Assembly: GCA_048886685.1 (NCBI GenBank)
Contig: JBHLKM010000007.1
Span: 64,001-128,000, forward strand
DNA: 64,000 bases
Reading direction: 5' to 3'
From: Candidatus Hodarchaeota archaeon
Lineage (GTDB): Archaea > Asgardarchaeota > Lokiarchaeia > Sigyniarchaeales > SOKP01
This document shows positions 8,121 to 33,965 of the stretch, one piece after another. The position numbers and the translations under genes are program-made. The notes under the pieces are model-generated. The model worked only from the letters and a program-made list of their open reading frames with translations, was not told the origin of the DNA and ran no database searches. Each line of letters begins with the position of its first letter. Position 1 is the stretch's first letter.

Positions 8121-9221
8121 ATGAAGGAAAACAAAGAATCCAAAAAATTATATATCTTTTACTTTGACCAAGTAGAAGGTCCAAAGTTATTTTTCAGTAA
8201 GCATGAATTTAATCCATTTGATAGTGTAATATTAGATATGCTATTGGGCTATGGTGGTGGAGAAAAACCATTTCCTATAGCATTTGAAGACTTTCAAACA
8301 TTAAACTATAAGTTTTATATTCCCTCAAAATTAGCAAGAAGTGGATTCGAAGAATTCATGATTACTTTGCTAGTAAATGAGCCATCTATAGAGAATTTCA
8401 AATCATTAAAACTCAAATCTCAAATTCTAAAAGAATTCGCTCATGAATTAAAAAATCTTAAAGAATTCCCCAAAATTCTATTTGAGAAGCGTAAATCAAG
8501 AAAAGAATTCTGGGAGATGGGTTATAATAAGTTTAGAAATACTCTCTTAGAGATATATGATAAATATTTTAATATTTTAGCATTACCTTTTACTGGAAAA
8601 CCGAGAAATGAGACAATTTTTAAGTTGAAAATGAATATCAAGCCAGAGATCTTAATCTATATTGTTCATGCTCACTTATTTAGGAAGAAAATATTTATTC
8701 CAATTAATAAGGAATATTATCATTCGATTCATGAAATAAATAATTTTATTGATTATATTTTTCAGAAATCTTTCACAGGAGATATTTTAATTAAATCTAA
8801 AACCCAATACAAGAGAAATAGGCAATTGTATGAAGAATACATCATAATGTATGAAAAAGATTTAGTTAATGAAACTAGGAAACTGATAAATTCTAATCTA
8901 CTAAAATATGAAACAGAATTAATAAGAACTTTCTATAATAATAAGGATAATGATTTATGTGTTCTTGATTTAAAAGAGAAGCTTGAGGGAATTTACATCT
9001 TAACAAGACATTTATTTAATTTTTATGAAAGGATTGATATCAAAAAACCGTTATCTCCAAGAACCCTAATAAAACATTTAGAGGAATCTCTTCTAGTTAA
9101 AAAAATCCAAAAGCAATATCTCTATTTTTTAACTGATGTTATTAGGGCTTATTTTGGTTTAAATATTATTTGGAAATGGGATGAACTCGGTGAAAAAATT
9201 GATGATTTATGGAAAGGCTAA
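8121..9221 (+). CDS. Folliculin/SMCR8-like longin (uDENN) + DENN-core-like protein
   Basis: N-terminal YFDQVEGPKLFF and FYIPSKLARSG resemble the FLCN (HFCELHGPRTLF; FFIKDSLARGF) and SMCR8 longin motifs. IVHAHLFRKKIFI resembles the start of the cDENN domain. Confidence 0.6.
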   Translation: MKENKESKKLYIFYFDQVEGPKLFFSKHEFNPFDSVILDMLLGYGGGEKPFPIAFEDFQTLNYKFYIPSKLARSGFEEFMITLLVNEPSIENFKSLKLKSQILKEFAHELKNLKEFPKILFEKRKSRKEFWEMGYNKFRNTLLEIYDKYFNILALPFTGKPRNETIFKLKMNIKPEILIYIVHAHLFRKKIFIPINKEYYHSIHEINNFIDYIFQKSFTGDILIKSKTQYKRNRQLYEEYIIMYEKDLVNETRKLINSNLLKYETELIRTFYNNKDNDLCVLDLKEKLEGIYILTRHLFNFYERIDIKKPLSPRTLIKHLEESLLVKKIQKQYLYFLTDVIRAYFGLNIIWKWDELGEKIDDLWKG

Positions 9222-9289
9222 ATTCAATAAATATTAGAAAAAAATCCCAAAAGATTGGTTTTTAAAAATATAATTTTAGACTAAAAAAT

Positions 9290-9889
9290 ATGATTATAGA
9301 TCATGTCGATAAAATATTGAGTATAAAAATTGTATATTTTGGACCTGCTCTTTCGGGTAAGACAACTTCCATTAAGGCATTATTTTCTCTTTTTGGTATG
9401 GATGAAAAAATATGTAGCATTGAAAGTACGGTCGAAAGGACATTATTTTTTGATTATGGTGTGGTTACCTTTCAAAATCAGGATTGGCAACTTAAAATTC
9501 ATATTTATACGACAACAGGTCAAGATTTCTATCTGATAACTAGATTAACGACATTACGTGCAGTAGATGGAATTATCTTTGTAATAGATTCACAAAAAGA
9601 AGTTTATGAAAGGAATTTAATATCTTGGAAAGAACTTTTTTCATATTTTACTGAATCTATAGAAGCTATTCCAATCCTCATAGCATTCAATAAACAAGAT
9701 TTAGGTTTAGAATTAAAATTTAATGCTGACGACTTTTTGAAAGAAATAGACTATTACAAGTATAAAAATATCGATTCGAGATATACTAGTGCGATTAACG
9801 GAGAAGGTGTATTAGAGTGTTTCGAAGATATTTTGCGATTAGTATTGAAGAAGTATTTTAGAAAAAAATTGATTTCTGTTATAATTTAA
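9290..9889 (+). CDS. MglA-type small GTPase
   Basis: KIVYFGPALSGKTT (G1), ERTLFFDY (MglA switch I with Arg), YTTTGQ (G3), NKQD (G4), SAING (G5). Confidence 0.9.
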   Translation: MIIDHVDKILSIKIVYFGPALSGKTTSIKALFSLFGMDEKICSIESTVERTLFFDYGVVTFQNQDWQLKIHIYTTTGQDFYLITRLTTLRAVDGIIFVIDSQKEVYERNLISWKELFSYFTESIEAIPILIAFNKQDLGLELKFNADDFLKEIDYYKYKNIDSRYTSAINGEGVLECFEDILRLVLKKYFRKKLISVII

Positions 9890-31001: not shown

Positions 31002-31928
31002 TTAAATTAATTGTTTTAAAATCTGTGATAAGTCTTCAAGAAATTCTGGAAAATTAGTTAAGAGATCGTCTTTGTGGCTTTCTTTTGTTACAACTGAAAT
31101 AAAAAACAACTCTGAACCTAATTTATATCTATGTAAATAGGAGAAAAGAGTATGTTCACTTGATGATATATCATGATCATATTCATATGTCGATTCTTCT
31201 TCCATCCTTTTAAGTAAAAATAGGTGTTCCTTAATTGATTCTAACAATTCAACGTATACGTCGGGTTTTATATCACTATAATATTCAGAAATAATTATAC
31301 CATTTCGATCAAATACGAGCAAAGCCTGACTATTGAAAACTTCTATATATTTCTCTAATAATTCAGATAGTTCAAAAAATTTATCGTCAAATACAGAAAG
31401 TCCATATGAAACTAATTGAACAATGGAAATAATATCATAAATAGAAGTTTGTTGAAACAAGATTTTAAAATTCGAATATTTATCTGATATCCTTATTCGT
31501 AATTTATCAATGTCCTGTAAAATCTCTTCATTTCCTCTTAAATCCGGATCATACTTATGGAAAGTTATTATCAGAGGGACATCCATTTCACTTTCAGTAA
31601 AAAACGTTAAAATTGAATTTAAATACTCAAGCGAGTTCTCAAATCTTTCAGGATCTTGAATATCAATCACATATATTAATAAGTCAGTAGCATCAAAATA
31701 AACATCTTGATAATTAATATAAATGTCTCGGTATTGATCTTGTCCTCCCATATCCCAGAAGATCGTATTATTCCTCAGGAAATTCATCTTGTGATATTCA
31801 ACCCTAATTGTTGGCTTCAATTGAACAATATCCTTTTGAAAATCATATTTTTTATCTAAAGCAGTCAAAATCGAAGTTTTTCCTGCATTATCGAGCCCAC
31901 TAATGATTACTTTTAAAAGATTTTCCAT
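31002..31928 (-). CDS. Rag/Gtr-like (Arf-superfamily) small GTPase with C-terminal roadblock-like domain
   Basis: GLDNAGKTS, PTI, WDMGGQ, HKYD (Rag-type His G4), TSIYD (Rag-type G5); C-terminal ALLVFDRNGIIISE roadblock/longin-like strand pattern. Confidence 0.82.
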   Translation of the reverse strand: MENLLKVIISGLDNAGKTSILTALDKKYDFQKDIVQLKPTIRVEYHKMNFLRNNTIFWDMGGQDQYRDIYINYQDVYFDATDLLIYVIDIQDPERFENSLEYLNSILTFFTESEMDVPLIITFHKYDPDLRGNEEILQDIDKLRIRISDKYSNFKILFQQTSIYDIISIVQLVSYGLSVFDDKFFELSELLEKYIEVFNSQALLVFDRNGIIISEYYSDIKPDVYVELLESIKEHLFLLKRMEEESTYEYDHDISSSEHTLFSYLHRYKLGSELFFISVVTKESHKDDLLTNFPEFLEDLSQILKQLI

Positions 31929-32227
31929 TGATTATACCAAATTTACGATTTTTAAATTTAATAAAATAATAGTCTAAACTAATTTAAACTTCTTGGATAG
32001 TTAACTCATATGTTTGATCCGCTGTAATTTATTATATTGTGTGCTATAATATCGAGATACTATCTTAATATTACTCCAATATTAATAATTTCTTTTTTCT
32101 AAGCGAATCTCCTTAAAAATATATGATTTTGGAGTGAAAAATATGATATATAAATGATATTTATATTTTTTAAAGGGATGACCGTGATTTTACTAAATGA
32201 ACTAGTTTTTAAATGGGGTTGATGTAA

Positions 32228-32455
32228 TTGACTGAAGTTGGAAATAATTTTCTGGAACATTTAGAATATCAAATAGGAATGTTAGAGAAATCTGAAGAAG
32301 CTTATAAAAAAATTCCAGTTTTTACAGAACAGTTAGAGCAATTTGATAAATCTGTAATGGATCTTAGAGAAAAATTCGAAAGAATACATCTTAGAGATAA
32401 ATATCAGATTATAATTTCAGAATTGGAAGAATTAATACAACAATCAAAAAAATAA
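32228..32455 (+). CDS. Small helical / coiled-coil hypothetical protein
   Basis: 75-aa amphipathic helical ORF after a GGGGTTGA RBS-like sequence. Confidence 0.65.
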   Translation: MTEVGNNFLEHLEYQIGMLEKSEEAYKKIPVFTEQLEQFDKSVMDLREKFERIHLRDKYQIIISELEELIQQSKK

Positions 32456-32496
32456 AAAATTCCTTCCCATTTTTTTTACTGGAATGAAGATAGGTT

Positions 32497-32919
32497 TTAC
32501 TCACCTATAATTGTACAATAAATAGTCCTTGAGCGTGGTTTTTCATCACATTCAATGAAAATAATCTGCTGCCAAGTTCCTAATATTAATTTTTGGTTTT
32601 TAAATGGAAAGGTTTGTGATGTTTTTATAAGAAAGCTTCTTAAATGCCCGGCTCCATTGTAATCATGCCAAGTCTTATGGTGAGCATAACTTTTTTCATA
32701 GGGAATTAGTTTTTCCAAAATATTTTTAATATCATGATCTACTAAACCTGGTTCATACTCAGTTGTGGATATTGCTCCTGTCGAACCACCTATATGTACA
32801 TTTACTATTCCATCTTTTATTCCACTTTTTTTAATTGAATTTTGAACTTGATTAGTAATGTTAATAACATCGCAATATGCTTTTGATTTTAAACCAAAAG
32901 TTTGAAAATCTACAGTCAT
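32497..32919 (-). CDS. yjbQ: YjbQ / UPF0047 family protein
   Basis: DGIV.V...GST.AI...EYEPG, HH..W...NG..H.RS, LGTWQQI...E.D...R.R. Confidence 0.92.
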   Translation of the reverse strand: MTVDFQTFGLKSKAYCDVINITNQVQNSIKKSGIKDGIVNVHIGGSTGAISTTEYEPGLVDHDIKNILEKLIPYEKSYAHHKTWHDYNGAGHLRSFLIKTSQTFPFKNQKLILGTWQQIIFIECDEKPRSRTIYCTIIGE

Positions 32920-33965
32920 TTTAGCTTCCTTTTATAGTCACACATATTCAATGTTTTTATCTGTTTAATTACCGATTTAGGCAAACTTTTTTCATCCCCC
33001 TCATTTAAAGCCAAGACTTTTGCTAAAATAAGGAGCTCATTTTGATCAAATCCCTTAATATTTGTCCATCCTGTTGAATCTCCTGCCTCTATACACACAA
33101 AATAAGGAGCTTTTTTAAATTTTGGACAATATTTATCTTTACATTTCTCACAAATTTTAGGAAAATAATAAACATTGCCATTTTTTAAGTATATAGAGAA
33201 CGTACCGAAAGATTTATTTTTTATTTTAATCCAATTAAGATAGTCAAATTCTATTTGGAGATCTAATTTTTGAAGGTATTCAATTAATAAATCCGTATTT
33301 ATAATTTGACGAATTTTTAATGTATGAGTTTCTGGTTCATAATATTCGTTACACTCATCTGTAATACCACTTTGACCAAATAAAGAAGTGAGTAATATCA
33401 GGTTGATAAAATATCTATTCTCTATTTCTTTAATTTTTGTTTTTTCTATAAAAAAACTAGAAACCTGATTAAGTATTTCATTAGCATCGGTAATCTCAGT
33501 TATTTTAAATCCGTGTTCTTCTCTGATTGAGTTAAATTCTTTGTTTATAAATTCTGAATTTATTATATCTTCTTTAGAAAGTTTTTCAAGAATTATGCAA
33601 AAAATAAGTGGTACTTCTGGTATTTTTGATTGAAGTTCATCAAAATATTGTCTAATTTGGTCGATTTTAGTTTCAGATATAAAAATTATTATCGCATCAG
33701 CTCCAGAATAGAAAATTGTGCGTAAGAAAGCTCTACGTTGACCACAGTCTATATTCCATAAAAGATATTCAAATTTCTGTTTCGGTTTGAAAAAATAATC
33801 GAGTTTACTAATATTCACACCAATATTTTGTTTATTCTCTATTGGTAAGCAATTTGAACTTAAAGATTTTTGAAACTCATTTTTTGTTATCTCGAGACCC
33901 CCAAGGATCACTATTTTTTTCTTAAAATAGAATTGGTAAGTTTCAAGAGTTTCGTAAGCACTCAA
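32916..33965 (-). CDS. Degenerate Rab-like GTPase domain fused to a Cys-rich C-terminal domain
   Basis: KKIVILGG (no GKT), NIGVN (Rab TIGVD-like), LLWNIDCGQ..AFLRTIFYSGADAIIIF (Rab WDTAGQ..YYRGA-like); C-terminal CEKCKDKYCP...C...C. Confidence 0.65.
   Translation of the reverse strand: MSAYETLETYQFYFKKKIVILGGLEITKNEFQKSLSSNCLPIENKQNIGVNISKLDYFFKPKQKFEYLLWNIDCGQRRAFLRTIFYSGADAIIIFISETKIDQIRQYFDELQSKIPEVPLIFCIILEKLSKEDIINSEFINKEFNSIREEHGFKITEITDANEILNQVSSFFIEKTKIKEIENRYFINLILLTSLFGQSGITDECNEYYEPETHTLKIRQIINTDLLIEYLQKLDLQIEFDYLNWIKIKNKSFGTFSIYLKNGNVYYFPKICEKCKDKYCPKFKKAPYFVCIEAGDSTGWTNIKGFDQNELLILAKVLALNEGDEKSLPKSVIKQIKTLNMCDYKRKLK

Follow-up and report, generated by a model that had tools for sequence, protein, structure and literature searches.

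The stretch of DNA analyzed here (the window) comprises 64,000 nt from Candidatus Hodarchaeota archaeon (contig JBHLKM010000007.1, positions 64,001-128,000, forward strand). This study concerns two neighboring forward-strand genes within it, an open reading frame (ORF) at 8121-9221 encoding a 366 amino acid protein of predicted longin-DENN architecture, as in the human tumor suppressor folliculin (FLCN), and, after a spacer of 68 bp (9222-9289), an ORF at 9290-9889 encoding an MglA-type small GTPase of 199 amino acids. An earlier note, made from the sequence alone, had placed both ORFs at these positions, strand and spacing, and the motifs it quoted from the larger protein were all found (YFDQVEGPKLFF, LNYKFYIPSKLARSGFEEF, which includes Arg73, and IVHAHLFRKKIFI); Arg73 sits within SKLARSGFEEF. 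Its assignment of the second gene to MglA was equally sound, with an E-value of 6.6e-24 to solved MglA (6hjh/3t12), and its remark that no MglB/Roadblock gene is adjacent holds for the whole contig, where the corresponding family PF03259 had no match.

The switch-I region of the GTPase reads ERTLFFD, and TTTGQ replaces DxxGQ. Homology, a switch-I arginine and TxxGQ in place of DxxGQ together place it in the MglA family. The caveat raised in the note, that MglA has a switch-I arginine of its own, was borne out, as both xRTLFFD (switch-I Arg) and TTTGQ (catalytic Gln) were invariant in all GTPase orthologs. The spacer contains a conserved TATA-like box (GGTTTTTAAAAAT, 9257-9269, forward strand) that precedes the GTPase start codon by 21-33 nt. 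Six orthologous loci keep the first 12 bases of the box (GGxTTTTAAAAA) with one substitution (third base A in locus L014), while spacer length across these loci ranged from 68 to ~200 bp. Elsewhere in the same genome (contigs labeled C1, C2, C6 and so on, with loci labeled L and proteins P), two MglA-type paralogs carry GSTLYFD or GATLYFD and are without the switch-I arginine of xRTLFFD (C1:418280-418966 and C2:136322-137014); judged by these motifs, they might need an arginine supplied in trans.

Fold and conserved residues of the 366 amino acid protein

Sequence searches of Pfam, NCBIfam and the PDB gave no match for the 366 amino acid protein, which fell below the curated cut-offs of the Pfam Folliculin (PF11704) and DENN (PF02141) families, and a search of the ESM Atlas returned only unnamed Promethearchaeota clusters. 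Its 47 close homologs were all from Asgard archaea (Promethearchaeota-type) and all annotated as 'hypothetical'. An AlphaFold2 model based on 24 sequences was confident (predicted local distance difference test score, pLDDT, 80.8; predicted template modeling score, pTM, 0.65) and contained the longin topology strand-strand-helix-strand-strand-strand-helix. The top ten Foldseek matches of this model in the PDB were all longin-DENN proteins (DENND10 at 5.5e-6, FLCN at 2.3e-5, FNIP2, DENND1B, C9orf72/SMCR8), with NPRL2/3 next in the ranking.

VIA-align, an aligner independent of Foldseek, divided the model into a longin (uDENN) domain (residues 6-156; 8136-8588) and a DENN half consisting of a DENN core and a helical dDENN (residues ~160-347; 8598-9161). 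The longin matched an Asgard longin (8yqg) with Z 12.3-12.4, NPRL2 with Z 10.1-10.8, Lst4 with 10.4-10.6 and Npr2 with 10.4, and FLCN was aligned over 298 residues covering both domains (Z 10.6). TRAPP, Mon1, SNARE and adaptor longins scored Z 9.2 or less, below the longins of the GTPase-activating protein (GAP) class by a margin of only ~1 Z unit. For the DENN half, matches were to DENND1A (6ekk, Z 8.5, 151 residues aligned), DENND1B (8.1), DENND10 (7.7) and the C-terminal domain of FLCN (3v42, 7.1); the similarity of residues 157-350 to the DENN domains of DENND1A/B and DENND10 (Z 7.6-8.5) is moderate. By the full-length Foldseek matches and VIA-align, the protein contains the tripartite uDENN-cDENN-dDENN module. 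The architecture that the earlier note had proposed is thus recovered in agreement by AlphaFold2, Foldseek and VIA-align, including the longin at the N-terminus on which the proposal hinged.

A survey of GAP longins (Traffic 2025, PMC12290439) defines a GP motif that either closes the first inter-strand loop or begins the second strand. The motif adjoins the arginine finger, is present in FLCN, NPRL2, SMCR8 and C9orf72, and is absent from FNIP2, NPRL3, TRAPP, adaptins and DENND proteins. In our model, Gly20-Pro21 (8178-8183) opens the second strand (residues 20-25), a position that fits this definition. Conservation was assessed in an alignment with homologs and paralogs at 21-37 % identity (A2) and in a longin-only alignment (A3). 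Invariant columns of A2 were L10, Y14, G20, P21, L42, N62 and F65, with F15, D16, S69 and R73 at 90 % or more; in A3, Y14, F15, G20, N62, S69, A72 and R73 were invariant and P21 was at 90 % or more. Arg73 (codon 8337-8339), the candidate arginine finger, was also at 90 % or more in alignment A1, and its predicted conservation in distant homologs, like that of GP, therefore stands. It is found in a confidently modeled loop (pLDDT 81-86) between the fourth and fifth strands (59-68 and 76-85). The longin is collinear with NPRL2 (model residues 6-156 to chain residues 6-141), which places Arg73 near the position of Arg78, the published catalytic arginine of NPRL2, in a domain-level alignment.

In published structures, determinants of partner specificity are located just N-terminal to GP (FLCN loop 10-16, NPRL2 T18/P19, SMCR8 E62/F63). 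The tripeptide preceding GP in the window's protein, QVE, was invariant in 22 orthologs and variable between paralog families, and by analogy would fit such a specificity loop. From sequence and model together, we consider it very probable that the 366 amino acid product is a longin-DENN protein of the GAP-longin class.

The DENN half shares a sequence family with Zn-ribbon-DENN proteins of ~280 amino acids, whose genes have no GTPase nearby in the window's own genome. These relatives form a large family (C10:124213-125067, C6:122790-123632, P0047, P0063 and others) with an N-terminal Zn-ribbon-like CPxC...C.H segment in place of the longin, and two further members (P0103 and P0134) carry N-terminal helix-turn-helix domains.

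The properties of the DENN half invite another explanation, in which the longin-DENN protein binds the MglA-type GTPase in the role of guanine nucleotide exchange factor (GEF), or as a platform or effector specific to one nucleotide state, and Arg73 is a structural or interface residue. Exchange could proceed via the DENN domain, as in DENND1-Rab35, or via the face of the longin, in the manner of TRAPP and Mon1-Ccz1. The DENN half resembles the Rab GEFs DENND1A/B (Z 8.1-8.5) and has strongly conserved motifs of its own (e.g., FQxSF and the C-terminal GEKIxxLW), the GTPase already has an intrinsic Arg and Gln, and Liu et al. (bioRxiv 10.1101/2020.10.19.343400) proposed that the DENN module of Asgard archaea serves as a GEF. 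However, GP is reported to be specific to GAP longins and missing from those of DENND proteins, TRAPP and adaptors, no positions of the longin are better conserved than GP and Arg, and the related Zn-ribbon-DENN genes stand apart from GTPase genes in this genome. We therefore regard a role in exchange or as a platform as unlikely, though it is the alternative to be taken most seriously.

Conserved linkage and distribution of the pair

Small GTPases are numerous in this genome (~117 ORFs), and 5.6 % of non-GTPase genes have one as an immediate neighbor; a single adjacency is therefore weak evidence, and it is its conservation that matters. Ten orthologous loci were recovered, and the MglA-type gene was linked to the longin-DENN gene in all nine that extended far enough. 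At three loci an opposite-strand gene encoding 534 amino acids is inserted between the two, and at the most diverged locus (56 % identity) the GTPase gene is convergent, owing to an inversion, and is the sole neighbor retained. The closer relatives also share much of the wider gene order (AOR in seven loci, NPD in four), so that the linkage on its own amounts to moderate evidence. In a tree of the MglA-type copies of the genus, the GTPases linked to longin-DENN genes formed their own clade (support 100/99), drawn exclusively from genomes that have the longin-DENN gene. In genome G335 the pair occurs in an unrelated context, as a third GTPase copy beyond the two standard paralogs. Given this relocation and the dedicated clade, the pair behaves as a unit. 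A linkage that is kept across orthologous loci through insertion, inversion and relocation, together with a GTPase clade of its own, backs the functional tie to the adjacent GTPase that had been suggested from the window.

The second partner suggested there, a Rag-like GTPase, is a genuine GTPase gene (Arf 5e-22, Gtr1_RagA 2e-20), although it is encoded on the minus strand (31002-31928). It lies 21 kb off and was unlinked in five other genomes, and was rejected as the partner of the longin-DENN protein. Within 31002-33965 (minus strand), this 308 amino acid GTPase is found close to a 349 amino acid protein whose N-terminus weakly resembles a Roc-type GTPase (E 1.8e-5, below cut-off).

The longin might still serve as a GAP for a different GTPase that lacks an arginine of its own, whether Rag-like, Arf-like or an Arg-less MglA paralog, with the adjacent MglA-type gene as a pathway partner or a mere syntenic neighbor. 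Such targets are available, given the ~117 small GTPases of the genome and the two MglA paralogs without an intrinsic arginine (C1:418280 and C2:136322); eukaryotic longin GAPs act on Rag and Arf, and close relatives retain much of the gene order around the locus in any case. This explanation is decidedly unlikely in our view, since the Rag-like gene is not linked in five other genomes, the link to MglA persists after rearrangement and relocation and marks off a GTPase clade of its own, and the GTPase associated with the paralogs described below is the fused or adjacent one.

Of 52 species genomes of a single Loki-type genus, 10 yielded the full-length longin-DENN gene; 81 genomes of 12 sister genera and the remaining sample of genomes from across the phylum yielded none. 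In one genome the locus context is the same, with small membrane ORFs at the place of the longin-DENN gene. All carrier genomes have an estimated contamination of 5 % or more, and the gene is absent from the 35 high-quality genomes of the family, a pattern that may mark a paralog-rich subclade rather than true contamination. The suggestion that the protein represents a precursor of FLCN/GATOR signaling is not supported for a gene limited to one genus and patchy within it. Confined in this way, the full-length gene carries limited evolutionary weight, and shuffling of domains within the lineage looks a better account of it than direct ancestry to FLCN or GATOR1.

Paralogs, published Asgard modules and eukaryotic counterparts

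The longin module of this family is also found fused to a C-terminal Arf-like GTPase domain in proteins of ~340 amino acids. Among seven GP-longin paralogs in the window's own genome, two are GTPase fusions and three have a GTPase gene as an immediate neighbor; another has one 1.8 kb off and the last has none nearby. Three of five non-fused paralogs beside a GTPase compares with a background of 5.6 % (P about 0.0016), and the fused paralogs lend support to the view that small GTPases are what this class of longin acts on.

The two fusions of a GP/Arg longin to an Arf-like GTPase are encoded at C11:159245-160282 (L002:1492-2526) and C25:33056-34066 (L004:961-1968). Their GTPase domain has a normal P-loop and no recognizable DxxGQ, and several family members carry a CxxC...C insert at the expected position of switch II. 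Two clusters of GP-longin paralogs (C32:4583-12283 and C6:100305-105215) are flanked by several multidomain small GTPases, with two flanking GTPase genes in the former and three tandem GTPases of 300-350 amino acids in the latter. In the metagenome protein P0107, a GP/Arg longin is fused to a TIR domain (PF13676, E 6.6e-14).

These associations also bear on whether the protein regulates a GTPase at all. Longin folds have roles unrelated to GTPases, the gene is narrowly and patchily distributed, and a regulatory role is predicted from sequence and models; the longin and DENN folds could then have another function, such as in membrane or SNARE-like interactions, and synteny by inheritance would account for the gene order. 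With the GAP-class motifs conserved, the longin class repeatedly fused or adjacent to GTPases and the linkage persistent, we find this improbable.

Several elements of the locus have precedents. Asgard DENN proteins, including the exact domain organization of FLCN in Heimdallarchaeia, an expansion of DENN paralogs in Loki, longins resembling NPRL2 and a conserved operon of Roadblock, GTPase and DENN genes have been described (Liu et al., bioRxiv 10.1101/2020.10.19.343400), as have Asgard longins with both a GP motif and an arginine finger (Traffic 2025, PMC12290439). The novelty that the earlier note had attached to the find was accordingly rated too high, as Asgard DENN proteins, the FLCN architecture and GP/Arg longins are all published. 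The window's protein belongs to the same class as the FLCN/SMCR8-type longins of these two studies, with GP and Arg and a longin followed by a DENN domain 'as in FLCN'. The published work places its emphasis on Heimdallarchaeia and leaves the partner GTPase open, with ArfR or Rag suggested, whereas the present family is a Loki-type one without annotation, confined to a single genus and linked with an MglA-type GTPase.

The published operon, in which the Roadblock protein is 'LAMTOR1-like', resembles our locus in that a DENN-fold protein is paired with an MglA-type GTPase, and the locus could accordingly be a mere further copy of it. The window's own genome has 23 PF03259 matches (18 above cut-off), all off this contig, and the flanks of the orthologous longin-DENN loci contained no Roadblock gene, as judged by ORF content. 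A probable copy of the published operon is present instead at C1:419453-421975 (L021:3454-5976), where genes for a 336 amino acid Roadblock protein, a highly conserved 298 amino acid protein and a 203 amino acid MglA-type GTPase are found, adjoined by the Arg-less MglA paralog at C1:418280-418966. The AlphaFold2 model of the middle protein reached a pLDDT of 59 and gave only local Foldseek matches to DENND1A/B (E 0.12-0.2, probability 0.85-0.89), so that its DENN fold is unconfirmed. The C-terminal ends of the two proteins are similar (GDKIVSLWG in the 298 amino acid protein, GEKIDDLWK in the window's protein). An iterated hidden Markov model (HMM) of the longin-DENN family did not reach the 298 amino acid protein, and hhalign aligned the two over the last 10 residues only, with a probability of 0.4 %. 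The GTPases of the two loci are distinct paralogs that share 51 % identity. To describe our locus as a copy of the published operon is therefore highly improbable, and this reading was rejected: the contig has no Roadblock gene, the longin-DENN protein has its own longin fused to DENN, its DENN half belongs to a different sequence family and the GTPase is another paralog.

Compared with FLCN and SMCR8, the archaeal protein has the same arrangement of an N-terminal longin and a C-terminal DENN domain; GP lies at the second strand, and a subsequent loop of the longin contains a conserved Arg. It differs in showing no sequence-level similarity, in being much smaller and without long insertions, and in the absence from its locus of a gene for a heterodimer partner, which is FNIP for FLCN and C9orf72 for SMCR8; neither a second longin-DENN gene at the locus nor another full-length paralog in the genome was found. 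The neighboring GTPase, moreover, is not a Rag or Arf but of the MglA type with its own Arg finger. The best eukaryotic match of the longin, NPRL2 and its yeast counterpart Npr2 (catalytic subunit of GATOR1/SEACIT; Z 10.1-10.8, with residue 6 matched to residue 6 in a collinear alignment), ends in a C-terminal domain of its own instead of DENN and acts on RagA/B as part of a three-subunit complex. With bacterial MglA-MglB the locus shares a clear MglA homolog whose Arg and Gln are intrinsic. The platform folds of longin and Roadblock are related, but MglB is a small Roadblock dimer that provides no catalytic residue, whereas the neighbor in the window is a longin-DENN protein with a candidate Arg finger.

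A candidate GAP-GTPase pair

Taken as a whole, the evidence leads us to propose that the longin-DENN protein regulates the neighboring MglA-type GTPase and may do so as a GAP acting through Arg73. As a complete statement, we give this a probability of roughly 0.45. GAP action through Arg73 is the most likely mechanism, if an unproven one. By analogy with FLCN, NPRL2 and SMCR8, the face of the longin would dock on the nucleotide pocket of the GTPase, the short D16-E19 loop ahead of GP would determine which partner is recognized, and Arg73 would stimulate the hydrolysis of GTP. The protein would probably act as a homodimer, as no FNIP- or NPRL3-like second subunit is encoded nearby. While the fold, the conservation of the motifs, the linkage and the fusion or adjacency of the longin class to GTPases are observations, we infer binding, a GAP rather than GEF direction, the role of Arg73 and dimerization from them.

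A number of observations weigh against this proposal. The GTPase keeps its own Arg and Gln, so that an arginine in trans is not obviously needed, and in bacteria MglA is activated by MglB, which contributes no arginine. Of the 52 genomes of the genus, 51 contain MglA-type genes of this subfamily, compared with 10 that have the longin-DENN gene, and this type of GTPase consequently works without it. The carrier genomes may form one subclade, so that co-occurrence may reflect few (one or two) independent events. In four of the nine informative loci the pair is non-co-oriented or non-contiguous, and the conserved TATA-like box suggests that the GTPase probably has its own promoter, which would make the two genes a neighbor pair rather than a strict operon. 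Sequence comparison also gave no connection to the eukaryotic GAPs, with only chance matches and no FLCN, NPRL2 or SMCR8 chain when a longin-only profile was compared with PDB sequences, and no consistent Folliculin or NPR2 signal when 23 homologs were scanned one by one against Pfam.

If regulation does proceed through Arg73 on a GTPase that retains its own finger, one version of the proposal would be a minimal, single-gene, homodimeric folliculin-like longin GAP, operating either by a two-arginine mechanism or by a switch between the intrinsic and the supplied finger. We hold this version to be doubtful. Were it true, it would provide a first model of longin-GAP catalysis from a prokaryote that is tractable at the bench, and would imply that MglA-type GTPases were connected with GAP-class longins earlier than Rag or Arf were. 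The 2025 longin-GAP survey asked which Asgard GTPases partner the GP/Arg longins, and this locus offers a concrete candidate: a small pair (366 and 199 amino acids), probably soluble and conserved in its linkage, that can be tested at the bench.

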